Assembly: GCA_964639965.1 (NCBI GenBank)
Contig: CAZXGI010000006.1
Coordinates: 1,554-65,553, forward strand
DNA: 64,000 nucleotides
Direction of reading: 5' to 3'
Source of the DNA: an uncultured Rhodospirillaceae bacterium
GTDB taxonomy: Bacteria > Pseudomonadota > Alphaproteobacteria > Rhodospirillales > UBA2165
In this document: positions 11,944-24,996 of the stretch, piece after piece
Layout: every line of letters begins with the position of its first letter
Position numbering within the stretch: the first letter of the stretch is position 1
Notes under the pieces: generated by a model
The model's database searches: none
What the model saw: only the letters and a program-made list of their open reading frames with translations
What the model was told of the DNA's origin: nothing
Position numbers and translations under genes: made by a program

Positions 11944-12828
11944 TCAATCATCGCCATTAGTGTAACGATTGCCAACTTGGAGCATTTCTTTAGTTCCTAA
12001 AAGTTCGTTTAACTCATCGAAATCAAACATTTGGGCTTGATGCTGTATCGTTGAGCCATGCCTCAATAACGAATTGAAGTAATTCTCCGCAGCATAAGCA
12101 AGCGCTCGAACTAGGGCGCCGGGGAATATTACAATCGAAAATCCCTTCTCTTCTAGTTCTAAAGCTGGCGCCATCGGAGTTTTTCCACCTTCAACCATAT
12201 TTATTAGTAATGGAATTTTGTCACCAAACTGTTCAACAACACGCGCAATTTGTTCCGCACTTTGCATAGCTTCAATAAATAAGACATCTGCTCCTGCTTC
12301 AACATAACCAACAGCCCGATCAATTGCACGCTCATAGCCCTCAACGGCAATTGCATCCGTCCTTGCAATGATCATTGTATTTTCGTCTTTGCGAGCATCA
12401 AGTGCGGCTTTGACCTTACCATTCATCTCATCTGTAGTTATCAGCACTTTACCATCAAGATGCCCACAGCGTTTCGGTGAAGACTGATCTTCTAATTGTA
12501 TACCTGAAGCGCCGTTTCTTTCGAGAAGCGTAACAGTTCTTTGCACATTTAAAGCATTACCAAATCCCGTGTCGGCATCAACGATTAAAGGCAAATTGAC
12601 CCTTTCGCGGATTGTGCCGACTATTGTCGCGAGTTCATCCAAAGTGACTAAACCAATATCAGGCCGAGCAAGCTTCGTATACGCTATTGAAGCTCCAGAA
12701 AGATAGAGCGCTTCAAAACCTGCACGCTCACCCATCATGGCACCAAAGGCATCGTAAATTCCTGGCGTTAATAATATTCGATCCTGTTTTATTCGGTTTC
12801 TTAAAATTTTTTGTGGCGACATAGCCAT
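11944..12828 (-). CDS. Isocitrate lyase/PEP mutase family enzyme (methylisocitrate or 2,3-dimethylmalate lyase-like)
   Basis: 294 aa. Contains the family signature EDQSSPKRCGHLDGK (K-[KR]-C-G-H). Size is like PrpB or Dml. Confidence 0.8.
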   Translation of the reverse strand: MAMSPQKILRNRIKQDRILLTPGIYDAFGAMMGERAGFEALYLSGASIAYTKLARPDIGLVTLDELATIVGTIRERVNLPLIVDADTGFGNALNVQRTVTLLERNGASGIQLEDQSSPKRCGHLDGKVLITTDEMNGKVKAALDARKDENTMIIARTDAIAVEGYERAIDRAVGYVEAGADVLFIEAMQSAEQIARVVEQFGDKIPLLINMVEGGKTPMAPALELEEKGFSIVIFPGALVRALAYAAENYFNSLLRHGSTIQHQAQMFDFDELNELLGTKEMLQVGNRYTNGDD

Positions 12829-12837
12829 TCCTTTTTG

Positions 12838-13323
12838 TTAGGTCTGGTTCAAAGTTCTTTTAAGATGGGGCACAAGTCCACCTGCTTCGATTAAAGCTAA
12901 TAGATTTGCTGGCACCGCTTCACCAGCTAGATCTATACCTGTAGAAAGATTATGTATTTTGCCAGACTTGAGATTTAGCGTTATTTTATTTCCGGCATTA
13001 ATTGGTTCAATATCATTTAATTTAATGGCAGGCAGTCCAAGATTAAAGGCGTTACGATAAAAAATACCGCTAAACGACTCCGCGATCACAGCGGCTACAC
13101 CCAAAGTTTTCAGCACTTGAGCCGCTTGCTCACGACTAGAACCCATGCCAAAATTTTTCCCGGCGACTACAAAATCCCCCTCAACCACTGAACCCGCAAA
13201 TAAAGGGTCGACTGTTTCTAAGCAATGACTTGCGAGTTCGTCTAGTGGCAGCTTAATATAAACACCAGGTACCAATAAATCCGTATTAATTTCATCCCCA
13301 AATTTCCATACTTGGCCAGACAT
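12838..13323 (-). CDS. Aconitase-family dehydratase small subunit (short LeuD/HacB/DmdB type)
   Basis: 161 aa with GKNFGMGSSREQA (the GxGSSRE swivel-domain motif). The start overlaps the large-subunit stop (TAATG). Confidence 0.8.
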   Translation of the reverse strand: MSGQVWKFGDEINTDLLVPGVYIKLPLDELASHCLETVDPLFAGSVVEGDFVVAGKNFGMGSSREQAAQVLKTLGVAAVIAESFSGIFYRNAFNLGLPAIKLNDIEPINAGNKITLNLKSGKIHNLSTGIDLAGEAVPANLLALIEAGGLVPHLKRTLNQT

Positions 13324-14588
13324 TATAACAAAATATCTCTAGGATCTGAAATATATCCCTTGATAGCACTTGCTGATACTGTATAGGGAGAAGCTAAATA
13401 CACCTTAGAGCTACTAGCTCCCATTCTTCCTTGAAAGTTCCGGGCTGTTGAAGCTAAGCAAACTTCTTCTTCTGCTAAGACACCTATCCCATAACCTGCA
13501 CAAGCACCGCACCCTGGAGGCAGTAAACTTGCCCCGGCTTCCAATAACACTTCAATTATGCCCTGCTTCGTTGCTAAACTTAAAACATGTGAAGAAGCTG
13601 GAGCAATTGTGAGTCGTTTACCCTCAGCAATTTTATAACCTCTTAAAACAGACGCCGCCATTTCTAAATCGTTCAGTTTGGCACCAGTGCAAGCCCCAAT
13701 GTAAAATTGGTCAATTTTATCCTGACCAACCTCTCCAACTGGAACAGCGTTTGCCGGACTATGTGGTGGGGCAACTTGAGGTGCCAAACCTGCAGCATCA
13801 AATTCGTGAGTAACCTTATAATTTGCATCTGGATCACTTTTGTACTTTCTCCAATCCCCCGGTTCACCACCGACCGACCTAACGTAAGCTACAGTAATCT
13901 CATCTGGCTCGATAAGACCAGATTGTGCGCCAAGTTCGGCGCTCATATTACTCAAAGTCATACGCTCAAAAATATTTAGCTTCTCAATCGTGTCACCACA
14001 GTAGAGAATTGATTGATAATCACCACCATTCATTCCGAGTGTGGCGCACATCTTAAGCGCCATATCCTTAGCAGCAACGCCAATACCCATATTACCCGAC
14101 CACCTGATCCGGATAGTCTCAGGAATTTTTATCCAAGTTTGCCCTGTAACAAGAATACCAAGCATATCAGTGGCACCAACTCCAAACATGTAGCTGCCAA
14201 ATGCGCCTCCGGTAGGAGAATGACTGTCGCCACCCACGGCAAACATGCCTGGAGACAAATGACCGTTTTCTGGCACCACAATATGACAGATACCTTTTTG
14301 ATCATAAAAATTTTTAACGTTATATTCTGAGGCCCACTCTCTCGTTAACTTCAGAATGCTAGCACTTTCAGAATCGGTACAAGGCGCAAAATGATCAGAC
14401 ACCAAGACAACCTTCCCGGGATCCCAAACGCCTGCACCTAACTGCTCCATAGTCGACTTAATACGTCGAGGGCCACCGCTATCATGGATCATAGCTAAAT
14501 CAACGTTGCAGGTGACGACTTCACCAGGCTTAACAAACTTTTGATTAGCTGCTTTTGCTATAATTTTTTCTGCGATCGTTTGACCCAT
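13323..14588 (-). CDS. Aconitase-family dehydratase large subunit (short LeuC/HacA/DmdA type)
   Basis: 421 aa. MIHDSGGP and GGDSHSPTGGAFG are present, and the Fe-S cluster cysteines appear in YIGACTG and PGCGACAG. Confidence 0.8.
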   Translation of the reverse strand: MGQTIAEKIIAKAANQKFVKPGEVVTCNVDLAMIHDSGGPRRIKSTMEQLGAGVWDPGKVVLVSDHFAPCTDSESASILKLTREWASEYNVKNFYDQKGICHIVVPENGHLSPGMFAVGGDSHSPTGGAFGSYMFGVGATDMLGILVTGQTWIKIPETIRIRWSGNMGIGVAAKDMALKMCATLGMNGGDYQSILYCGDTIEKLNIFERMTLSNMSAELGAQSGLIEPDEITVAYVRSVGGEPGDWRKYKSDPDANYKVTHEFDAAGLAPQVAPPHSPANAVPVGEVGQDKIDQFYIGACTGAKLNDLEMAASVLRGYKIAEGKRLTIAPASSHVLSLATKQGIIEVLLEAGASLLPPGCGACAGYGIGVLAEEEVCLASTARNFQGRMGASSSKVYLASPYTVSASAIKGYISDPRDILL

Positions 14589-14721: not shown

Positions 14722-15729
14722 ATGAATAAAACAATCCTAGCAGCAGCGGCAAGCGTAATTATAATGCAATCTACTAGCGTATTTGCAACAGGTCCAATCA
14801 AAGTTGCATCATTTGTTTCCCCAAAAAGCATGGGGGTCACAAGAGTTATAAAACCTTGGATGGCCAATGTTAAGGCCGATGTTGGAGGTAAGGTTGAACT
14901 AAAGGGCTATTGGGGTGGATCACTCGGTAAAAGTCCGGTAAAGCAATATGAATTGGTAAAGAATGGTGTAGCCGATTTAGCGTGGATTTTGCCTGGTTAT
15001 ACCTCGGGACAATTTCCAGAAATGCAAATAGTTGAACTTCCATTTTTATTAAATACGGCTCTTGAGGCCTCTCTAGTTATTCAACGATTACATGACGCGG
15101 GCTTTAAAACAGGTCTAGGTCAAGTTAAATTGATAGGAGCTTGGGCCTCTGCACCAAATTTGTTATTCCTAAACAAACCTGTAAAGAAAATCTCTGATTT
15201 GAAAAATCTAAAAATTAGGAATGCTGGTTCCGTAGGGGGATATTGGCTGGGAAAAATCGGAGCTATCCCACAAACCATGAGCGCACCAAAAATGACCGTC
15301 GCTCTTAACCGGAAAACAATTGACGGAGGTCAACAAGGTTGGACAGGAATGAGGACTTTTAAAGCAATGCGCCTTGTTACACATGTCATGGATCTGCCTT
15401 TAGGTGCCATTCCCTTCTTCTTAGGAATGAACAAGAAGAAATGGGATGGACTTCCTAAAGATGTTCAAGCAGCATTCTTAAAACACGGCAGCGAAAAAAT
15501 CGCTCGGAATGGAGGCGCTGCTTATGGGGATGCCACCTTAAAGATTATAAAATCAAATCCACAGGCAAAAAAACTTACGATTGTCAAACCTAGTGGAGCA
15601 GAATTCAATAAAACGGTTAAAGACGCCAAAGCTTCTGTACACAAATGGTGGATAAATAAAACAAAAAATGGCCAAGCTGTTTACGATAAAGCCGTTAAGA
15701 TTATAGCGGACGTTCGAAAGAACGGATAA
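14722..15729 (+). CDS. TRAP transporter solute-binding protein (DctP family)
   Basis: 335 aa with an N-terminal signal peptide MNKTILAAAASVIIMQSTSVFA and a strong RBS GGGAGGAAG. DctQ and DctM genes follow. Confidence 0.75.
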   Translation: MNKTILAAAASVIIMQSTSVFATGPIKVASFVSPKSMGVTRVIKPWMANVKADVGGKVELKGYWGGSLGKSPVKQYELVKNGVADLAWILPGYTSGQFPEMQIVELPFLLNTALEASLVIQRLHDAGFKTGLGQVKLIGAWASAPNLLFLNKPVKKISDLKNLKIRNAGSVGGYWLGKIGAIPQTMSAPKMTVALNRKTIDGGQQGWTGMRTFKAMRLVTHVMDLPLGAIPFFLGMNKKKWDGLPKDVQAAFLKHGSEKIARNGGAAYGDATLKIIKSNPQAKKLTIVKPSGAEFNKTVKDAKASVHKWWINKTKNGQAVYDKAVKIIADVRKNG

Positions 15730-15750
15730 ACTATCATTTGGTAGAAAAAA

Positions 15751-16287
15751 TTGGATCAATTTGAAACAACAAGCAGGCGGCTTAGCGAATACCTAAAGCT
15801 GGTCGCCTGCGTTGGCTTTACTGGGCTTGTCGCAGTTGCCCTATTAACTATGGTTGATGGTTTAGGGCGGTGGCTGGCGCTCCCTCGCATTCCGGGGTTC
15901 AATGATTATGCTCAAATTTCTTATGCTATCGTAATCTCATCTTGTTTTCCCTCATTACTTCTCAGAGATCAAAATGTAACTATCCGTTTTCTCGGAAGAG
16001 CGTTTAAGGGTCGAACAAACTATTGGCTGGAAGTTTTTGGTAATTTGTTTACCCTATTCTTTTTCTCGATACTTGTTTGGCAATTCTATCTACTAACGAT
16101 TGACCTTCAGGTTAATAATAGAACGTCCCCGACTATAGAGTTCCCTATTGCACCTTGGTGGTGGATCATCTCATTTATAATGACGATTACCGTTCCGGTA
16201 CAGGTGATCGTTTTCGCGGATAGTGTCTACAGTGCCATTCGTAATCAACCCAGCCGCCTTCCCAAAGAAGAAACGGAGAGCGTTTAA
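15751..16287 (+). CDS. TRAP transporter small permease (DctQ family)
   Basis: 178-aa membrane protein with a TTG start, lying between the DctP and DctM genes. Confidence 0.65.
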   Translation: MDQFETTSRRLSEYLKLVACVGFTGLVAVALLTMVDGLGRWLALPRIPGFNDYAQISYAIVISSCFPSLLLRDQNVTIRFLGRAFKGRTNYWLEVFGNLFTLFFFSILVWQFYLLTIDLQVNNRTSPTIEFPIAPWWWIISFIMTITVPVQVIVFADSVYSAIRNQPSRLPKEETESV

Positions 16288-17591
16288 TGGATCCTATTGT
16301 CATAGGTGCCTTAGGTCTTGGTGCGATGTTTGTTCTTATCGCCCTCCATGTACCTATCGGTGTAGCTATGGGCATCACCGGAGTAGCTTCAGTAGGCTTT
16401 ATGATTGGCTGGGAACCAGCCCTTACGCTTCTCGGCACCGAGCCATCGGCAAAGATTGAAGATGAAGGGCTGGCTGTTGTCGCTCTTTTTCTGTTGATGG
16501 GCGCCTTTGCAACGGAAGCCGGTGTCTCGGCAGATATGTATAGGCTCGCTTATGCAATGGTTGGTCACTTTCGTGGGGGTCTAGCTATGTCAACAATTGG
16601 CGGATGTGCGGGTTTTGGAGCTATTTGCGGCTCCTCTATTGCCACCACAGCAACCATGGCAAAAATCGCATTGCCCGAAATGATAGATCGCAACTATAAG
16701 CGAACATTAGCGAGTGGATGTATCGCAGCAGGTGGCACCCTAGGAATGCTGGTCCCACCTTCCGTCGTAATGATTATTTATGGAATTCTAACTGAAGAAA
16801 GCATTATTGCATTATTTGCTGCAGCTATTTTTCCTGGGGCCATTGCAACCGTCCTTTACTGCATTACGATCAGTATTATTGTGCGACTAAAACCTGATTC
16901 AGGTCCAGCTGGTGAACGACTTCCATGGAAAGAAAAATTGTCTGTATTGATCGCCTCATGGCGTTTCTTGCTAATAGCGATCCTCGTTTCGGGCGGAATT
17001 TATACCGGAATTTTTACAATCACAGAAGCAGCATCAGTCGGTGCAAGTCTTGCTTTCATTTTTGCTATATTCAATGGCATGAGAATGGAGGGTTTTTTAA
17101 ATTGCCTTTCAACGACAGCAGCAAATACTGGAATGATTTTTGTTATCATTATGGGCGCATCAGTCTTTAGCTACTTCATCACATTATCTGGTTTACCTGA
17201 TGCATCAGTCCAGTTCATCAAAAGCTTAAACGCCTCAGATTTCATAGTTCTTTTCATGCTGATGGTATTATATCTCATTCTTGGTAGTATTTTCGATACT
17301 GTTGCAGCTATGGTGATTACGTTACCTTTCGTTTATCCAGTCATCATGGATATGGGTTACGATCCCATATGGTGGGGCGTTATTAACGTAATGATAATGG
17401 AGATCGGCATGATCACACCCCCCATTGGGATCAATGTATTTGTACTTAACGGCATGTCAAAAGATCTTAACCTAAAAACAATTTATGCGGGAATTTTTCC
17501 ATTCTTCATGACAGATATCGTACGCTTGGCTATATGTCTAATATTTCCAGCCACCGCGCTCTGGCTGCCAAAGGCTTGGGGATTAATGTAG
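16287..17591 (+). CDS. TRAP transporter large permease (DctM family)
   Basis: 434-aa polytopic membrane protein with a 1-nt overlap with the DctQ gene. Confidence 0.85.
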   Translation: MDPIVIGALGLGAMFVLIALHVPIGVAMGITGVASVGFMIGWEPALTLLGTEPSAKIEDEGLAVVALFLLMGAFATEAGVSADMYRLAYAMVGHFRGGLAMSTIGGCAGFGAICGSSIATTATMAKIALPEMIDRNYKRTLASGCIAAGGTLGMLVPPSVVMIIYGILTEESIIALFAAAIFPGAIATVLYCITISIIVRLKPDSGPAGERLPWKEKLSVLIASWRFLLIAILVSGGIYTGIFTITEAASVGASLAFIFAIFNGMRMEGFLNCLSTTAANTGMIFVIIMGASVFSYFITLSGLPDASVQFIKSLNASDFIVLFMLMVLYLILGSIFDTVAAMVITLPFVYPVIMDMGYDPIWWGVINVMIMEIGMITPPIGINVFVLNGMSKDLNLKTIYAGIFPFFMTDIVRLAICLIFPATALWLPKAWGLM

Positions 17592-17623
17592 AGAAAATCA
17601 TTGGTTGTGGGGTGTCTTTCTAG

Positions 17624-19333
17624 GTGACAAAAGAAAAAAAAACAGTATACAGCGTTGCCCAAGCCCTCCTCGCCTTACTCGCCGACCGCGGTGTTAAATA
17701 TATTTTTGCTAATGCTGGAACTGATTTTGCTCCATTAATCGAAGCTTTCGCAAAAGCTGAAACATTAAATTTACCCGTCCCAAAACCTATAGCCGTGCCC
17801 CATGAAAATGTCGCGATGGCGTTGGCCATGGGCTACACAATGATCACAGGTAATCCACAGGTGGTAATGGTGCATACAAATGTAGGAACGGCAAATGCGT
17901 TATGTCAAATCTTAAATACTAATAAACTAAACCTACCCGTAATTGTAACAGCCGGTAGAACACCATACACAGAGGAAAACGTTGAAGGCGGACGTAGTAT
18001 TGATATTCATTGGACCCAAGAAATGTTTGATCAAGCTGGAATGGTGCGAGAAACTGTGAAGTGGGATTATGAATTACGGGAAGCCGGACAACTACATGCA
18101 GTTGTTGATCGAGCTCTTAATATTTCCAAAGCTCTCCCAAGAGGTCCTGTCTATTTGACATTACCACGCGAGATTTTAGCAGCGGACATCGGTGATGTTA
18201 CCTTCGACCCTGCAACACAACACTCAAATGCGACGGTGCCGTATCCAGATTTAAATGCAATTGATCAACTGGCTGAATGCATTATGACAGCAAAAAACCC
18301 AATGATCATCACAAGCCAATTGGGAAATATTATAGAAGCCGTAAAACCTCTCTCTGACTTAGCGGAACGCTTTGCAATTCCAGTGACCCAGTATCGTCCG
18401 CGTACCCTGAACATCCCAACAGATCATCCAATGTCTATGGGTTTTGATCCATCATTCTTAATTGGTGAAGCCGACTTCATCATCGCTATTGAGTGTGAAG
18501 TTCCCTGGATACCTAATTTCAAAAAACCCCCACCCAATTGCAAGGTAGCACATATTGCATCCGACCCATTATACACTGCAGCCCCCCACCGGGGTTTTAG
18601 GGCAGATTTTACTATTACCGGCGCAGCAGATATCTCACTTCTTGCATTATCATTAGCAATGGAGTCACGATTGGCTAATTCTCGAGAAGGACTTGAAGCA
18701 AGGCGGAGTAAATTAAAGGAATTAAGAAAATCATTAGACGAGGAGTGGCAGAGCCAACTGAAACGTACTACGAATAACAGTCCAATTTCATCTGCCTGGC
18801 TAACCTATTGCTTAAGCAACGTAATTGATGTGACCAATGTTGTAATGCGGGAATCACCACTTGATCTTCGGTACCTTAAACGCAGCCAACCTGGGACATT
18901 ATTCGGCGGAGCCAGCGGGCTCGGTTGGGGCTTAGGTGGAGCTATTGGCGCTAAACTGGCAAATCCAGACAATTTGGTGATCGCGACTGAGGGTGACGGG
19001 GCCTATATGTTTGGTAATCCTGTCTCTGCCCATTATATTGCTGCTACGCATGATCTTCCATTTCTAACTGTCATTTTTAACAACGAACGCTGGGGCGCTG
19101 TTAAACGAGCCACACACGCTATGTACCCTGAAGGCTATGCCAAGGAAAGCAATTCTGCTCCTCTTACCAATTTACAGCCATCGCCCCATTTCGAAAAAGT
19201 AGTTCTTGCTTCTGATGGTTATGGCGAGAAGGTTACTGATCCAAATAAAGTATCTCGGGCTCTCGAACGTGCTTTAAAATCTGTAATCATTGAGAAACGA
19301 CAAGCTGTTTTAAATATTATTTGTGAAGAATAG
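17624..19333 (+). CDS. Thiamine-diphosphate-dependent enzyme (acetolactate synthase-like superfamily, function unknown)
   Basis: 569 aa with a GTG start. PHENVAMALAMGY carries the catalytic Glu region, and the TPP-binding motif is GDGAYMFGN...FNNERWG. It lies 32 nt after the TRAP permease. Confidence 0.75.
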   Translation: MTKEKKTVYSVAQALLALLADRGVKYIFANAGTDFAPLIEAFAKAETLNLPVPKPIAVPHENVAMALAMGYTMITGNPQVVMVHTNVGTANALCQILNTNKLNLPVIVTAGRTPYTEENVEGGRSIDIHWTQEMFDQAGMVRETVKWDYELREAGQLHAVVDRALNISKALPRGPVYLTLPREILAADIGDVTFDPATQHSNATVPYPDLNAIDQLAECIMTAKNPMIITSQLGNIIEAVKPLSDLAERFAIPVTQYRPRTLNIPTDHPMSMGFDPSFLIGEADFIIAIECEVPWIPNFKKPPPNCKVAHIASDPLYTAAPHRGFRADFTITGAADISLLALSLAMESRLANSREGLEARRSKLKELRKSLDEEWQSQLKRTTNNSPISSAWLTYCLSNVIDVTNVVMRESPLDLRYLKRSQPGTLFGGASGLGWGLGGAIGAKLANPDNLVIATEGDGAYMFGNPVSAHYIAATHDLPFLTVIFNNERWGAVKRATHAMYPEGYAKESNSAPLTNLQPSPHFEKVVLASDGYGEKVTDPNKVSRALERALKSVIIEKRQAVLNIICEE

Positions 19334-19447
19334 ATATTTGATTTGGCCCGTCCAATAATTAAGATTGAACCAAACGGTAGTTTTTTTCATCAACATACAA
19401 ATAATTTTTACGCTGATAATGAATATCTTGATGGAACCGTAGTCGAG

Positions 19448-20323
19448 CTAATTTATCAAATTATAAACTTTTTCAACATTATAACGTAATAGTTTTGCTA
19501 GTGGTTCTGACCTAAATCCTAGTTCCCCGATTTCATCCAAGGCTCTGTTAAAATCAATTACTGGAAAATCGGTACCAAATATAACCTTATCCTGACCATA
19601 CGAGTTTATATATTTAATAAATGATTTAGGCCAATATTTTGGTGCATGGGCATCGCAGCCAATATAAACGTTCGGGTGTTTCCAAGCCATCGCTATCATT
19701 TCATCATGCCAGGGAATACCAATATGAATACCAATTATTTTCAACTCAGGAAAATCACATGCAACCGAATCGATAGTTATAGGCTGACCAACGCTTCGCA
19801 TTGGGTTATTTGGAGAATAGATCAAAGATTGCCCAACTTGCATTTGAATTGGAACACCTAGCTCGACGCATTTTGCGTATATAGGATAATATTTTGCATG
19901 ATCTGGTGCTAACTCAAACCAGTGAGGGTAAACGTGTGCCCCAATGAAACCAAGCCGAATAATCGCATCCTCAAACACTTTGACACCGTCCATACCATCG
20001 AAGGGATCAATTCCTGCTATACCATAAAACCGATCAGGAAATTTTTTTACTGCGTCAACAACAAGTTGATACGGAATATCATAAGAACCTGCTAAACCCT
20101 TCCGTCCAATCTTTGGCGCAATCAAGAAGGCCTTTTCTATTCCGGCATTATCCATTCGATTTAACATTTCATCTAGTGTCAAACCCTTAAATGTTTGTGC
20201 ATCAACCCCAATTTTATCTAGATAAAAGTTCTCACGATCTTTAGGTCGATGTGCCATTGCTTCTTCTGTCTGTATATTCACAACAGCATCAATCGCCTTA
20301 ACAGGAAAAGAATTGGTGGACAT
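19448..20323 (-). CDS. Amidohydrolase_2 (ACMSD/TIM-barrel metallo-hydrolase or decarboxylase-like) family protein
   Basis: 291 aa. GAHVYPHW, IIGIHIGIPWHDE and the C-terminal FGTDFP are typical of the family. The N-terminal HxH appears replaced (IDAVVNI). Confidence 0.6.
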   Translation of the reverse strand: MSTNSFPVKAIDAVVNIQTEEAMAHRPKDRENFYLDKIGVDAQTFKGLTLDEMLNRMDNAGIEKAFLIAPKIGRKGLAGSYDIPYQLVVDAVKKFPDRFYGIAGIDPFDGMDGVKVFEDAIIRLGFIGAHVYPHWFELAPDHAKYYPIYAKCVELGVPIQMQVGQSLIYSPNNPMRSVGQPITIDSVACDFPELKIIGIHIGIPWHDEMIAMAWKHPNVYIGCDAHAPKYWPKSFIKYINSYGQDKVIFGTDFPVIDFNRALDEIGELGFRSEPLAKLLRYNVEKVYNLIN

Positions 20324-20444
20324 AACGGTATTCTATCTCAAATAATGATTCATCTGATATAAAAATGCCATTACTAATGACGTACCGCAAGAAATTCTGT
20401 AAATAGTATTCAAATATTTTAGTTTAATTTTTTCGGAAGAGATA

Positions 20445-21908
20445 TTGCTTTATAACAAAAATATAGCGCTAGCGCTTGAAGAAAATGCAAAACGACGTGG
20501 GTCACACCCGGCTATAATTGACGGACCACAGGTTCTTTCTTACCGTAATCTCGATATTACAGTAAAAAAAATTTCAGGGCATATAAAAGATCAGAATATC
20601 GAAGAGGGTAATATTATAGGCGTGTGCTTGCCAGACACCGCTGACCATCTAATGGTGCTTTATGCTATAGCACGTCTAGGAGCAATAATTCTGCCAATTG
20701 ATTGGCGTTGGACAGAAACTGAAAGAATAAATATTGCAACATTTTTTAAAGTTTCTCTAATTATTGGGATACCTGAGAAAAAAACGAGTGGTTTCAAGAA
20801 TCTTTCAATCGACGATAAGTGGCATGCATCCGTTGAAAACAGAACTTCTGATACACCTTGTGCAACAGGGGGAACACGCCCGGTAGTTTTATCACTTTCT
20901 TCGGGCTCAACTGGAAGACCTAAAGGGCCCATGTTAACGCATTCCCAATTCACGGCGCGTTTTGTAATGCAGTGGGTTACATTAGGATTTAACCAGCACG
21001 ATCGATATCTAAGCGCTACACCTATCTATTTTGGGGGAGGACGTAGTTTTACAATGGGTTGTTTATATAGCGGTTCGACTGTAATTCTATTTCCCCCGCC
21101 ATACGAACCCGAAGAGTTAGTCACCGCTGCAACAAATTATCAGGCGACCACCCTATTACTCGTTCCGACCTTATTACGCCGATTACTCAAGCTACCGAAG
21201 AGAAAACGCCCCTTGCTTGCAGGTCTAAACCGCCTGCTATCAACCGGCGCTGTGCTTCATCCGGATGAACGTAAAGCAGTGATGCAAAATCTAAACCCTA
21301 ATTTTATTAATTACTATGGCTCTACCGAAGGTGGGGGCACATCAGTACTTTTGCCACATCACACAGCATCTACGTCGGTTGGCGAAGCCATCTACCAAAC
21401 AGAAATCGAGATAGTCGATGATTGCGACCAGAAATTATCCACAAATCAATTAGGACATATCCGTTACCGAAGCCCGGGAGTTTCTAGAAATTTTTTTAAT
21501 GATCCAGAAGCCAGTGCAGCCTGTTTCAGGAAGGGCTGGTTTTATCCGGGTGATATTGGCAGCATAGATGAAAATGGGTTTTTGTATTTAAAGGGACGGG
21601 CAAAAGATATAATTATAAAATCTGGTATTAATATATATCCAGCCGAAATTGAACAGGTGTTTCTTAGCCATCCGACCATTGATGACGTGGTTGCTGTTCC
21701 TTGGTCGAATTCCGAATACGGCGAGGATATTGCCGTATTCGCCGTCACAAATAAACATATAGAAGAAAAAGCATTGCTTCTCTATTGCCGGGAAAAGCTC
21801 GCATCATACAAGGTGCCAAAAGGTGTATTTTTTATTAAAGAAATACCAAAAACCGCTCTTGGCAAGGTTATTAAATCTAAACTGATCAAAAAACTATCGA
21901 AAACTTAA
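20445..21908 (+). CDS. AMP-forming acyl-CoA synthetase/ligase
   Basis: 487 aa with a TTG start preceded by GGAAGAG. Contains SSGSTGRPKG, GWFYPGD and a C-terminal LGKV. Confidence 0.8.
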   Translation: MLYNKNIALALEENAKRRGSHPAIIDGPQVLSYRNLDITVKKISGHIKDQNIEEGNIIGVCLPDTADHLMVLYAIARLGAIILPIDWRWTETERINIATFFKVSLIIGIPEKKTSGFKNLSIDDKWHASVENRTSDTPCATGGTRPVVLSLSSGSTGRPKGPMLTHSQFTARFVMQWVTLGFNQHDRYLSATPIYFGGGRSFTMGCLYSGSTVILFPPPYEPEELVTAATNYQATTLLLVPTLLRRLLKLPKRKRPLLAGLNRLLSTGAVLHPDERKAVMQNLNPNFINYYGSTEGGGTSVLLPHHTASTSVGEAIYQTEIEIVDDCDQKLSTNQLGHIRYRSPGVSRNFFNDPEASAACFRKGWFYPGDIGSIDENGFLYLKGRAKDIIIKSGINIYPAEIEQVFLSHPTIDDVVAVPWSNSEYGEDIAVFAVTNKHIEEKALLLYCREKLASYKVPKGVFFIKEIPKTALGKVIKSKLIKKLSKT

Positions 21909-21910
21909 TC

Positions 21911-23128
21911 TTATTCAATGCTAGAAGCTTTTCGTAAACCTTCATACATAGAGGATTTCATCAAAAACGCCTTACATTTTATCGGATCATCCGATATTTT
22001 CTGTAGTTCATCTAAAGACATTTGCCGCCTTTGGTGATTTTTCTCCGTCATACGTTTACGATTTTCATCGGCTTGTTTAATAATCTGTTGCTCAGCAATT
22101 GGTTTCCGCTGTCGCGAATAAAGATCAAGGAGTTCAAAATAATTGTCTCTACTCTCATTCAACCAAATTTTATTTAATTTTTCTGTCAAGTTATGTGCGT
22201 CGTGTAAACCACCATTCATACCCATACCACCAGAGGGTGAATTGACATGCGCAGCATCTCCTGCCAAAGCAATTCGACCGTGGTCATATTTGTTGACTAT
22301 GCGTTGGTGAACCCTATAAACACGTTTATCATAAATTTCAAATGGACCTTCAATCGGACATATATCGTGCAATTGTTTTTGGATATTTTTATCGTCTAAG
22401 GCTTCCTCTTGTGACATATTCTCAGGAAAGTAAAGGCTGGCACGCCATTGATCTGGTAACTGCAAGAGACTGAAATTACCTTTTTCCTCCCAACAGTAGC
22501 TAACACTCGACAAACCATCAATATACTCATGAAATGGGAAAGGTGTTGTGACCAATACAGTTTTTTCAGGATACGTAGACCCTTCAAAGGCTAAACCCAA
22601 ATGTTCCCTTATCGAACTATTACCGCCATCCGCTGCGATCAAAAATTGACCGCAAATTGTTTCGGAGCCTTTACCTGATTCAACGTTAATAATGATACCA
22701 TTATCATTCTGGCTTAAGGATACAAATTCCGTTCCATAACGAATATCTGCTAAAGGATTAGCTCGAAGTTGCCTGTCCATAATCTTGCAAATCTTACTTT
22801 GCTCAAATTGGACCCTATAGGGGTAGTCTGTCTCATCAGAAATATTATTCAGGTCAAAAACCACTTTATCTCCAGTTAAATGATTGCGAATTTGCCATTG
22901 ACGCACCTTAATCCCCGTCTCAAGTATCTCTTCCGTTATGCCATATGGGGCCATCATTTCCAACGAAGGGGGGTGGATTGTCGAAGCGCGAATATCACTA
23001 CTAACCTTCTTAGATTTATCAATGAGTGTTATAGGAATTCCAAAGCCAACCAAACGGATCGCAGCAAACAAACCTACAGGTCCACCTCCAACTATCAAAA
23101 TACGTTTGTCTTTAGCTGGCGTTACCAT
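21911..23128 (-). CDS. FAD-dependent aromatic-ring monooxygenase (class A flavoprotein hydroxylase)
   Basis: 405 aa. ILIVGGGPVGLFAA (GxGxxG), LIAADGGNSSIR (DG motif) and LAGDAAHVNSPSGGMGMN (GD motif). Confidence 0.8.
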   Translation of the reverse strand: MVTPAKDKRILIVGGGPVGLFAAIRLVGFGIPITLIDKSKKVSSDIRASTIHPPSLEMMAPYGITEEILETGIKVRQWQIRNHLTGDKVVFDLNNISDETDYPYRVQFEQSKICKIMDRQLRANPLADIRYGTEFVSLSQNDNGIIINVESGKGSETICGQFLIAADGGNSSIREHLGLAFEGSTYPEKTVLVTTPFPFHEYIDGLSSVSYCWEEKGNFSLLQLPDQWRASLYFPENMSQEEALDDKNIQKQLHDICPIEGPFEIYDKRVYRVHQRIVNKYDHGRIALAGDAAHVNSPSGGMGMNGGLHDAHNLTEKLNKIWLNESRDNYFELLDLYSRQRKPIAEQQIIKQADENRKRMTEKNHQRRQMSLDELQKISDDPIKCKAFLMKSSMYEGLRKASSIE

Positions 23129-23223: not shown

Positions 23224-23994
23224 ATGACCGAACTAGAGTACGCGAAACGAGGCCTCGTTGGTGTCCTCACTCCTCAAGCAAATACCACCGTTGAGCCAGA
23301 GTTTACAATCTTATGGCCCAACGGTGTAGCAATGCTGAACGCGCGTATGACGAGTCGCAAAAAAACCATTGAAGAGCGACTTGTCGACTATACCGATCAA
23401 ATAGAAGATACACTCGAACAATTCGCAAACGCGCCAATTCAAGTAGCTGCTTTTGGGTGCACTGGCGCCTCATATTTGATTGGCCAAGACAAAGAAGCTG
23501 AAATCTGTGATCGTATTCAAAAAAATAAAGGGTTCCCATTCGTTACAGCTGCAAGGGCCGTCACAGACTCATTGAATTCATTAAACGCAAAAAACATTGG
23601 GTTAGTTTCTCCGTACCCAGCCGAATTAACGGAAATTAGTGTTAATTATTGGCAAAATGCTGGTTTCATCGTTAGAGAAGTTGCCAGCGCATTTAACGAA
23701 ACCAGTGAATTCCACCCAATCTACAGTCTACAAGCAGAAACCAGTATGGAGGCTCTTCAATCCTTAAAACGCAAAAATATTGATGTTATTGTCATGCTAG
23801 GAACTGGTATGCCGACACTCCAACCGATTTTGGACTGCGCAAATTGGGACGGTGCGCCGGTGACTTCCTGTATGTTGAGCCTTGCCTGGCGAACTGTCTT
23901 ATATCTAGAAGGTCAAGCTCCCACAGAACAGAGCATGTTAGCATGGAGCAAGGGTAATTCATGGCACAAACGCATGCATAGCCACATCGATTAA
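23224..23994 (+). CDS. Asp/Glu/hydantoin racemase superfamily protein (maleate isomerase or arylmalonate decarboxylase-like)
   Basis: 256 aa. TPQANTTVEPEF and AAFGCTGASY resemble maleate isomerase. The second catalytic Cys position reads MLGTGMPTL (Gly). Confidence 0.65.
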   Translation: MTELEYAKRGLVGVLTPQANTTVEPEFTILWPNGVAMLNARMTSRKKTIEERLVDYTDQIEDTLEQFANAPIQVAAFGCTGASYLIGQDKEAEICDRIQKNKGFPFVTAARAVTDSLNSLNAKNIGLVSPYPAELTEISVNYWQNAGFIVREVASAFNETSEFHPIYSLQAETSMEALQSLKRKNIDVIVMLGTGMPTLQPILDCANWDGAPVTSCMLSLAWRTVLYLEGQAPTEQSMLAWSKGNSWHKRMHSHID

Positions 23995-24003
23995 AATCAA
24001 ATT

Positions 24004-24996
24004 ATGCCAGATCGTAAACAAATAAAAAGACCTCCTGAAACCGCAGATGATTTTAAGGCACTTTTCCCAAATATTTCTGGCAACAAAGTAAATGGCCTGA
24101 ATGAAGAGGAAATTAGACGCCCATCACCGTTTTTTTGGCATCCCCACGAAAAACATGCCTTTGGCGAATTGCAATCCGAAGTCATAGGTATTCAACGGCG
24201 ATCAAGTGCAATTGTTGAACACTACAGCAGCGAAGCACCCCGCGGACCAGAAATAGAGAAGCGGGCGGAGACTATGATTCAAAAATCAGCGGAGGAATGG
24301 AAGAAAACCATTAAAGAATTTACCCTAAATCACGAAGGTGATGATATTCGAATTACTGAGATGGATCCAATGTATACCTTTGAAGGTTATCAAATCAATG
24401 AACCATGGGTCATAATAATAGCAGTCAAAATGAACCACGAAGAACTCAATAAAGTACCTCCAAGCCTCGCGAGGCCTGACTCTTCTGTCGAAGTTGCGCG
24501 GCAATATAATCGTGCTGCAAGAGTTTGCCGTGAATTAACCAATTTTATATTAAGCCAGGGTTTTTCAGCAAAGCCGTGGGCTGGACCATTTGCCTCAGCT
24601 TTAAGTATGATGCCAGCGGCAATCGATTCGGGCATGGGTACCCTCGGCAAACATGGCTCGCTCATACACGGCGAATTTGGCTCTTCATTTCGACTTTCTG
24701 CCGTAACCACCGATATCCCTCTAATTGCGGACAAAGTCAGAGATATCGGTGCCGAGGATTTCTGCACTAATTGTCAAATATGCGTGAAAGCGTGCCCACC
24801 GAGCGCTATTTTCCCCGAAAAACAAATGGTTCGCGGAATAAAAAAATGGTTCGTCGATTTTGACAAATGCATTCCTACCTTTGGCGAAGCATTAGGATGT
24901 GCGATTTGTATAGCAAAATGTCCATGGTCAACCCCAGGACGCGCGCCCAAACTCTCTGAAAAGATGCTAAAACGCCGAGCAAAATTACAGAACTAA
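24004..24996 (+). CDS. RdhA/QueG-superfamily corrinoid-type iron-sulfur protein (reductive dehalogenase-like, cytoplasmic)
   Basis: 330 aa. WKKTIKEFTLNHEGDDIRI and GMGTLGKHGSLIHGEFGSSFRLSAVTTDIPL form an RdhA/QueG-type core. Cluster motifs are CTNCQICVKACPPSAI and C-x9-CAICIAKCPW. There is no twin-arginine signal. It lies 9 nt after the previous gene. Confidence 0.6.
   Translation: MPDRKQIKRPPETADDFKALFPNISGNKVNGLNEEEIRRPSPFFWHPHEKHAFGELQSEVIGIQRRSSAIVEHYSSEAPRGPEIEKRAETMIQKSAEEWKKTIKEFTLNHEGDDIRITEMDPMYTFEGYQINEPWVIIIAVKMNHEELNKVPPSLARPDSSVEVARQYNRAARVCRELTNFILSQGFSAKPWAGPFASALSMMPAAIDSGMGTLGKHGSLIHGEFGSSFRLSAVTTDIPLIADKVRDIGAEDFCTNCQICVKACPPSAIFPEKQMVRGIKKWFVDFDKCIPTFGEALGCAICIAKCPWSTPGRAPKLSEKMLKRRAKLQN

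Follow-up and report, generated by a model that had tools for sequence, protein, structure and literature searches.

Four architectures have been described for the reductive dehalogenases (RdhA): respiratory, marked by a leader for twin-arginine translocation (TAT) and by RdhB; transmembrane; and catabolic, either having a fused reductase or lacking one (PMC10463259). A vestigial second copy of the cobalamin-binding domain is present in both catabolic types, and in BhbA and JtRdhA a phthalate-dioxygenase-reductase (PDR)-type module makes the enzyme self-sufficient (PMC10463259). The tRNA epoxyqueuosine reductase QueG has its active-site tyrosine in common with RdhA, but has no equivalent of Arg305 of PceA; its hallmarks are a strict D-Y-H motif, Asp130 and a C-terminal domain of HEAT repeats (D100-Y101-H102 and D130 in S. 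thermophilus; PMC4646009). A 'simplified cytosolic type' of RdhA-like protein averaging ~395 amino acids (aa) is found in cold seeps, mainly in Desulfobacterota and Chloroflexota (PMC12219181). Ros_A3X954 of Roseobacter sp. MED193, an aerobic marine alphaproteobacterium, is a proven 2,6-dibromophenol debrominase, with a recognisable PF13486 domain and motifs at 283-294 and 337-345 (PMC13101508). Here we analyse a gene at 24004..24996 (+) in 64,000 nucleotides (nt) of DNA from an uncultured Rhodospirillaceae bacterium (contig CAZXGI010000006.1), the whole of which we call the window. Its 330-aa product is a minimal RdhA-like protein, predicted to hold B12 and two [4Fe-4S] clusters. Its architecture is none of those four, and when compared by description the cold-seep simplified type is the nearest described category.

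Placement on the reductive dehalogenase side of the superfamily

The open reading frame (ORF) starts with ATG and matches the description in a first-pass annotation of the window; the peptides quoted there and both cluster motifs are present where that annotation had put them. The annotation had assigned the product to the superfamily that contains RdhA and QueG, and had proposed a hidden Markov model (HMM) search to place it. Pfam sees only ferredoxin-type domains in the protein. The NCBIfam model for reductive dehalogenases (TIGR02486) gives 98.7 bits (cutoff 160.35) and that for QueG (TIGR00276) 51.4 bits (cutoff 200), so that both scores are too low to pass; neither the window protein nor any of 28 family members searched is matched by PF13486 at E<=1. 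The comparison with solved structures is clearer. The single sequence matches NpRdhA at 8.5e-20, PceA at 3.4e-19 and DhPceA of the reductive dehalogenase complex (8q4h) at 1e-18, as against 3e-6 for QueG. A profile built from the 28 family members scores 108 (NpRdhA), 100 and 100 bits with RdhAs, and 41 and 32 bits with QueGs.

Structure prediction with cobalamin docking had also been suggested. The prediction, made without docked cobalamin, gave a confident AlphaFold2 (AF2) model with an RdhA fold, calculated from the 28-member alignment (predicted local distance difference test score, pLDDT, 94.0; predicted TM-score, pTM, 0.91). Foldseek places PceA, DhPceA and NpRdhA at the top of the matches to this model, with E-values of 1e-16 to 1e-14, query-normalised TM-scores (TMq) of 0.59-0.70 and a probability of 1.00. 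QueG follows at ~1e-7 (TMq 0.41-0.47), and then CblC/MMACHC at ~2e-3. The corrinoid-binding alpha/beta core fold is therefore present in the model.

The predicted active site tells the same story. Tyr168 (codon 24505-24507, +) and Arg230 (codon 24691-24693, +), both checked at codon level, are paired by HMM and MAFFT alignment with Tyr246 and Arg305 of PceA and with Tyr426 and Lys488 of NpRdhA. All 28 family members have the two residues, and nearly all the clade representatives examined retain them. The position of the D-Y-H motif of QueG reads Q167-Y168-N169, while that of QueG Asp130 and PceA Asn272 is an invariant G194-P195-F/Y-A-S stretch with no acidic residue. There is no HEAT-like tandem-helix C-terminal domain. 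The pair of Tyr and Arg, the Q-Y-N motif, the Gly-Pro at the Asp130 position and the lack of the HEAT domain set the protein apart from QueG and put it on the RdhA side. The spacing of the cysteines in the second cluster motif is x9, compared with x10 in PceA, x12 in NpRdhA and x27 in E. coli QueG; the first-pass annotation was thus right to regard the C-x9-C spacing as RdhA-like rather than QueG-like.

NCBIfam, profile, structural and alignment evidence therefore agree with the superfamily placement and sharpen it to an RdhA-type member. To judge from sequence and model, this is clearly a soluble member of the class-III cobalamin superfamily, lying on the reductive-dehalogenase branch, and not a QueG orthologue. 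That it works as a class-III B12/Fe-S reductase of the RdhA branch we regard as highly probable.

Architecture of the protein

The N-terminal region (aa 1-125; 24004..24378, +) is specific to the family, and occupies the place of the TAT leader, the N-terminal lid or the vestigial domain of known RdhAs. It is marked by invariant alignment columns and a confidently predicted fold, and has no Pfam match in the window protein or the 28 family members scanned. Within it the family alignment reveals an invariant motif SGNxVNG...SPFFWHP (aa 25-47; nt 24076-24144), of which the FFWH element is confined to this short RdhA-like subfamily among the clade representatives compared. Some members of the clade (P0171, P0151, P0166 and P0177) have an N-terminal extension of ~100 aa.

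The predicted corrinoid-binding core follows (aa 126-245; 24379..24738, +), as delineated by HMM alignments to 4ras, 4uqu and 8q4h and by a MAFFT alignment that included E. coli QueG. A check of the sequence places LGKHGSLI, which holds the QueG-like LGKHGS motif, at aa 214-221 (nt 24643-24666, +). The first [4Fe-4S] motif is CTNCQICVKACP (CxxCxxCxxxCP; aa 254-265; 24763..24798, +), verified in the sequence and in the family alignment. The second is C289-x9-C299-x2-C302-x3-C306-P-W (aa 289-308; 24868..24927, +), verified in the sequence and in the MAFFT alignment. All eight cluster cysteines are invariant in the alignment of 28 family members. Just 24 aa remain after Cys306, the last of these cysteines, and they provide one 17-residue helix beyond the ferredoxin domain, bearing out the short end without a QueG HEAT-like tail that had been noted earlier. 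This helix (aa 313-329; 24940..24990, +) is basic and conserved in the alignment and the AF2 model, with K320, R324 and R325 invariant. A redox partner, or the phosphate groups of coenzyme A (CoA), might dock there.

The N-terminus, MPDRKQIKRPPE..., has no RR-x-F-L-K leader, and nothing hydrophobic comes after the RR at aa 37-38. The highest Kyte-Doolittle mean over 19 residues is only 1.23, which predicts no transmembrane segment. A small hydrophobic RdhB-like ORF is likewise absent from 22.9-26.2 kb of the window. Hydropathy and ORF scan therefore agree with the earlier statement that the protein has neither a twin-arginine leader nor an RdhB-like anchor, and from its sequence it is predicted to be cytoplasmic and soluble.

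Distribution of the family

How widespread are such proteins? Homologues number 1704 at E<=1e-3. The best 120 of these are 56-100% identical and, save for one 240-aa fragment, each is 320-351 aa long. With so many full-length homologues the gene is genuine and conserved. The protein had been described as markedly shorter than typical RdhAs; it is, and it shares this length with a large clade in which such a size is usual. When 1.84 billion cluster representatives (50% identity) were searched with the profile, 340 clusters matched at E<1e-30, rising to 1731 at E<1e-10 and to 5983 at E<1e-3, and a scan of one genome per species found a relative in at least 586 genomes. Among the genomes listed, carriers are Rhodospirillaceae and other Alphaproteobacteria, Burkholderiaceae, Woeseiaceae, Halieaceae, Lysobacterales, Acidobacteriaceae (including the cultured Tunturiibacter psychrotolerans X4BP1), Actinomycetota and Entotheonella. 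The gene also occurs in complete genomes (NZ_CP132941.1, OZ244980.1 and OZ243926.1). No family member is found among 72,556 plasmids. The plasmid matches are distant canonical RdhAs only, including that on the BhbA plasmid of Comamonas sp. 7D-2, and the two that were examined are self-sufficient enzymes of ~1070 aa.

A neighbour-joining (NJ) tree of the core, with E. coli QueG as its root, groups the short 'GKHG' proteins (290-370 aa) in one clade, sister to the canonical RdhAs (PceA, DhPceA, NpRdhA and relatives of 400-490 aa); as a distance tree with a single outgroup it is only indicative. Databases label the homologues '4Fe-4S dicluster domain-containing protein', 'ferredoxin' or, in some Joint Genome Institute (JGI) records, 'epoxyqueuosine reductase'. 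The last of these is a misannotation. We found no description in the literature of a third family that is QueG-like or RdhA-like. Since none of the 28 members examined matches PF13486, surveys of RdhA probably miss the clade.

A locus of an uncultured Thiotrichales (L033) has two paralogous members of the family separated by a single gene, at ~8-11 kb, beside a TonB-dependent receptor and zinc-type alcohol dehydrogenases.

Genetic context of the RdhA-like gene

Immediately upstream in the window lies a gene of the Asp/Glu-racemase superfamily (23224..23994, +), which ends 9 nt before the start of the RdhA-like gene; the two are probably co-transcribed. Divergent from this pair is a class-A flavin adenine dinucleotide (FAD) aromatic monooxygenase (PF01494, MhpA/PRK08132-like; 21911..23128, -), and an acyl/aryl-CoA ligase (20445..21908, +) lies 2.1 kb upstream of the RdhA-like gene on the same strand. 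Further upstream are an amidohydrolase_2 protein, a thiamine diphosphate (ThDP) enzyme (PRK08327) and a tripartite ATP-independent periplasmic (TRAP) transporter. Downstream there is a convergent ilvC-ilvN-ilvB operon, ilvC being 56 nt from the RdhA-like gene. The gene had been described as embedded in a catabolic cluster, and this is so on one flank, where the genes are of catabolic type; the other flank is biosynthetic. A promoter-like site precedes the monooxygenase gene on the minus strand (23184-23156). Around the RdhA-like gene, scans for promoters and terminators gave counts no higher than in shuffled sequence.

We surveyed the context more widely by clustering all ORFs within +/-10 kb of 80 homologues (some of the counts below are over 77 or 76 loci), together with a Pfam census of 118 putative operon partners. 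The trio of monooxygenase, racemase-like and RdhA-like genes is retained only by the two closest genomes (L001 and L002), and the ilv side by four. In L002, which is 80% identical, the 7.3-kb block of TRAP transporter, ThDP enzyme, amidohydrolase_2 and CoA ligase (window 14722-21908) is absent, and an aconitase-like large subunit abuts the FAD monooxygenase. Since the block from TRAP transporter to CoA ligase is missing there, the 'catabolic cluster' of the window is a mosaic. No neighbour of any kind is conserved across the 80 loci, and RdhB, ferredoxin, reductase, regulator and transporter are all absent as constant partners. The putative operon partners are mixed, comprising AMP-binding ligases, major facilitator superfamily (MFS) and TonB-type transporters, short-chain dehydrogenases/reductases (SDR), glucose-methanol-choline (GMC) and FAD oxidoreductases and hydrolases.

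A theme can nevertheless be discerned in a minority of loci. The CoA ligase is the most frequent upstream neighbour of the family. In 9 of 76 loci one is found no further than 1.5 kb away, every time upstream and on the same strand, compared with six occurrences in the remaining ~17 kb per locus. A class-A flavin hydroxylase occurs within 3 kb in 11 of the 76, and one or other of the two in 19. A case in point is a lineage (P0042) that is 70% identical, is found on 24 contigs and has the ilvC-ilvN-ilvB-miaA synteny of the window; it was taken in place of the window protein, for which an exact-sequence look-up of contigs gave no match. Here the RdhA-like gene is preceded, at a distance of 2 nt, by that of a PaaK-family aryl-CoA ligase, and a divergent 774-aa protein passes the NCBIfam equivalog cutoff for bifunctional salicylyl-CoA 5-hydroxylase/oxidoreductase (1111 versus 1078 bits). 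Other loci have a PaaI-type thioesterase, ThDP enzymes or a gene like 3-hydroxybenzoate/salicylate monooxygenase. CoA ligase and flavin hydroxylase with the RdhA-like gene is thus a recurring combination. The first-pass annotation had proposed that the enzyme acts on the substrate of its cluster, and this is supported in part: the exact neighbours are kept only in the two closest genomes and the block is missing from one of them, but CoA ligase and class-A hydroxylase recur in several lineages.

Some further features of these loci may be recorded. The racemase-like protein (23224-23994) has weak matches to arylmalonate decarboxylase (46 bits) and EutA; it has a cysteine at the first catalytic position only (FGCTGAS), with Gly-Thr-Gly at the second. 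Arylmalonate decarboxylase has the reverse arrangement of cysteines. Also in the window, at 11944-14588 (-), a PrpB/methylisocitrate-lyase-like gene (below the equivalog cutoff) is found beside a pair of large and small subunits like those of homoaconitase/isopropylmalate isomerase. These genes flank the transporter block and may belong to an unusual organic-acid pathway. In Acidobacteriaceae (L058, L060, L064, L068, L072 and L080) the RdhA-like gene is flanked by a large (~1100-aa) CarboxypepD_reg/outer-membrane beta-barrel transporter and an MFS permease, and these flanking transporters suggest uptake of an external substrate. In another locus (L084, 16173-16835, +; also in L085-L087), which has a PaaK-like ligase as well, a deiodinase-family ORF lies ~7 kb from the RdhA-like orthologue and contains an in-frame TGA at FGSYT-TGA-PPF. 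What has been called as two genes here is probably one deiodinase-like protein with selenocysteine, and it has no counterpart in the window.

Supply of cobalamin and electrons

The ORFs of the window that were scanned include CobN, CobW, five corrin methylases, CbiD, CbiC and CbiJ, together with CobQ/CobB, CobD, CobU, CobS, CobT and CobO. Cobalamin biosynthesis genes are thus present in the vicinity, as had been pointed out before, yet their association with the family is not conserved: to a distance of 10 kb, the 80 loci contain no homologue of the window cob proteins. For this reason we take these genes as a sign that the host can supply B12, and not of a functional link. No Rfam family, cobalamin riboswitch included, reaches its gathering score anywhere in the window (1-64000).

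A clue to the source of electrons comes from a 764-aa relative, P0171. The short core, together with some of the N-terminal region, is present in it at 33% identity over 326 aa and is joined to FAD_binding_6, NAD_binding_1 and 2Fe-2S ferredoxin domains that make up a C-terminal PDR-like reductase module; the protein also has one predicted hydrophobic segment. By the Rosetta-stone argument, NAD(P)H-derived electrons most likely reach unfused proteins such as that of the window through a separate reductase or ferredoxin of this type.

Proposed function and alternative explanations

These observations suggest how the enzyme might work. Electrons from NAD(P)H would pass through a separate ferredoxin or PDR-type partner to the outer (distal) [4Fe-4S] cluster, and then via the inner (proximal) cluster to a base-off corrinoid lying beneath Tyr168, which would be reduced to Co(I). 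The Co(I) would attack an aromatic acid, or its CoA thioester, at a leaving group that is most likely a halogen, and Tyr168, activated by Arg230, would protonate the carbon that remains. The flavin hydroxylase could then act on the cleaned ring. Indeed, the presence of flavin hydroxylase and CoA ligase alongside suggests that the enzyme removes a substituent that blocks aerobic ring hydroxylation. On the strength of sequence and model we therefore favour, with some confidence, a cytoplasmic B12/Fe-S reductase fed by NAD(P)H, probably a catabolic dehalogenase of an aromatic acid or CoA ester and not an enzyme of respiration. Dehalogenation taken by itself is a more tentative assignment, to which we would give not quite an even chance. 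A still more specific proposal, that the clade is a fifth class-III B12 architecture devoted to CoA-activated aromatic acids in aerobes, for reductive dehalogenation or for non-halide reductive elimination, seems to us unlikely. One reaction that would suit this proposal is the NADPH-dependent reductive ortho-dehalogenation of 2,4-dichlorobenzoyl-CoA that Romanov and Hausinger reportedly observed in 1996 in aerobic coryneforms, the gene for which was not identified; our search of the literature found nothing relevant on a gene for a 2,4-dichlorobenzoyl-CoA dehalogenase.

A number of observations weigh against a catabolic dehalogenase. The protein falls below the cutoff of TIGR02486, and the lack of a PF13486 match extends to all 28 family members searched. 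There is no counterpart of PceA Asn272 or NpRdhA Arg552, and the G-K-H-(G/S) and P-F motifs are common to the family and QueG, not to RdhAs; because the GKH(G/S) motif is QueG-like, the chemistry of the family may differ from that of the RdhAs. Corrinoid binding by the window protein is predicted from homology, and there is no characterised enzyme in the short clade. The context is not uniformly helpful either: no dedicated reductase or ferredoxin gene adjoins the RdhA-like gene in the window, nor is there a halogen-related gene near it, in 23 of 77 cases the homologue stands without a close partner on its strand, and in 57 of 76 loci neither CoA ligase nor flavin hydroxylase lies within 3 kb.

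Could the same cofactors and fold support a different chemistry? The family would then be a third functional branch of class III, catalysing a non-halide reductive elimination or reduction in aerobic hybrid pathways; the candidate leaving groups, borne by an aromatic or alicyclic acyl-CoA, are an epoxide, hydroxyl, amino or ether. Its position as a clade of its own, sister to the canonical RdhAs in the rough NJ tree, would suit this idea, as would the unique invariant N-terminal motif, the GKH and P-F motifs in common with QueG and the absence of PceA Asn272. The family is widespread in aerobic soil and marine heterotrophs, amongst generic catabolic neighbours (CoA ligase, enoyl-CoA hydratase, acyl-CoA dehydrogenase, SDR, salicylyl-CoA hydroxylase-type), and QueG provides a precedent in that the superfamily is not confined to halides (PMC4646009). 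Yet the RdhA-specific Tyr-Arg signature, missing in QueG, is invariant in the family, all characterised proteins with this pair are dehalogenases, and no conserved neighbour points to a specific alternative substrate. We therefore consider a third branch somewhat unlikely. A different departure would be a protein with no corrinoid at all, in which the fold acts as a scaffold or binds flavin (compare the nitroreductase and iodotyrosine-deiodinase folds) in an electron carrier or other reductase, or else a B12-processing enzyme like CblC. Pfam does after all find ferredoxin domains only, no sequence signature of corrinoid binding exists for which to look, CblC is a weak structural match (E ~2e-3) and there are no cob or btu genes near the 80 homologues. 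Against these points must be set the invariant pair of Tyr and Arg that lies over the corrin in RdhAs, and the alignment of the core over its full length with B12-binding RdhA cores, where the vestigial B12-free domain of NpRdhA scores just 11 bits. The host, moreover, carries genes for cobalamin biosynthesis. We regard an enzyme of this kind as improbable.

The remaining possibility is that the protein is QueG or an analogue of it, an epoxyqueuosine reductase acting on tRNA. Some JGI records of homologues carry this name, the GKH motif is in common, an alignment of 201 aa with E. coli QueG shows 26% identity, and the 64-kb window contains no second QueG-like gene; the check for a separate queG suggested in the first-pass annotation covers the window, not the rest of the genome. 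Almost everything else contradicts it: the TIGR00276 score of 51.4 bits against a cutoff of 200, the replacement of D-Y-H by Q-Y-N, the absence of both the catalytic Asp and the HEAT-repeat tRNA-side domain, and cluster spacing of x9 rather than the x27 of E. coli QueG. Patchy distribution, varying catabolic context and tandem paralogues are also unlike a housekeeping tRNA enzyme. A role as QueG is thus most improbable.

Cytosolic catabolic RdhAs are already established and short active ones have been shown recently, so the kind of enzyme is known, and the present family is an extension of it and not a new principle. What is new is the smallest architecture so far, with no vestigial domain and with an N-terminal module of its own; an active-site neighbourhood that mixes features of QueG and RdhA; and a large clade in aerobic taxa that standard RdhA models do not detect. 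Surveys and pipelines for RdhA rely on PF13486 or TIGR02486, and a clade that lies below both cutoffs represents a hidden diversity of several hundred species at least. Should its members prove to be active B12 reductases, oxic soils and seawater would have a greater potential for natural organohalide turnover than gene counts now indicate, and the demand for B12 in aerobic catabolism would be underestimated. If they dehalogenate aryl-CoA, or perform another reductive elimination, B12 reductive chemistry would be a common and overlooked step in the aerobic catabolism of aromatics by soil Acidobacteriota and marine Alpha- and Gammaproteobacteria. Respiratory RdhAs are hard to express. A soluble, single-domain protein of ~330 aa would be the smallest RdhA-type scaffold, and attractive for mechanistic and bioremediation work.

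Comparison with known systems

The closest parallels are with the catabolic enzymes NpRdhA, BhbA and JtRdhA. Like these, the window protein is predicted to be cytoplasmic, with no TAT leader and no RdhB, and to have the same core fold, two [4Fe-4S] clusters and the pair of Tyr and basic residue. NpRdhA gives the highest query-normalised TM-score (0.66-0.70) and the best sequence match (108 bits), and the plasmid copy of BhbA is 31% identical over aa 160-312. The hosts are aerobic in both cases, with genes of aromatic-acid catabolism alongside, and P0171 carries a similar PDR-like reductase fusion. The differences lie in the size (~330 aa compared with ~700-1070 aa), in the conserved N-terminal 125 aa of its own, and in a single core with no vestigial domain, both NpRdhA domains aligning to the same region of the query. 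The window protein has no fused reductase and no equivalent of NpRdhA Arg552; its TIGR02486 score is under the cutoff and PF13486 does not match it.

PceA of Sulfurospirillum multivorans and DhPceA (8q4h) give the lowest Foldseek E-values (~1e-16). They have in common with the window protein a single core followed by two [4Fe-4S] clusters, the equivalents of Tyr246 and Arg305, and the short spacing of cysteines. Unlike them the window protein has no TAT leader or RdhB, is 100-170 aa shorter and has an invariant Gly-Pro at the position of Asn272; its relatives occur in aerobic hosts with no respiratory gene context. QueG resembles it in being cytoplasmic and of comparable size, in the architecture of the cofactor chain, and in the active-site Tyr and the G-K-H-(G/S) and P-F motifs. 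In contrast to QueG, the window protein has no D-Y-H motif, catalytic Asp or HEAT-repeat domain, and carries the RdhA-specific Arg; its sequence and structure scores with QueG are much weaker than those with RdhAs.

Lastly, comparison with the cold-seep simplified type, Ros_A3X954 and the Ng and Silver enzymes is by published features only. On these, the cold-seep type and Ros_A3X954 are, like the present family, cytosolic, with no TAT leader, vestigial domain or fused reductase; the present family differs from Ros_A3X954 in the positions of its motifs and in that PF13486 matches none of its 28 members.

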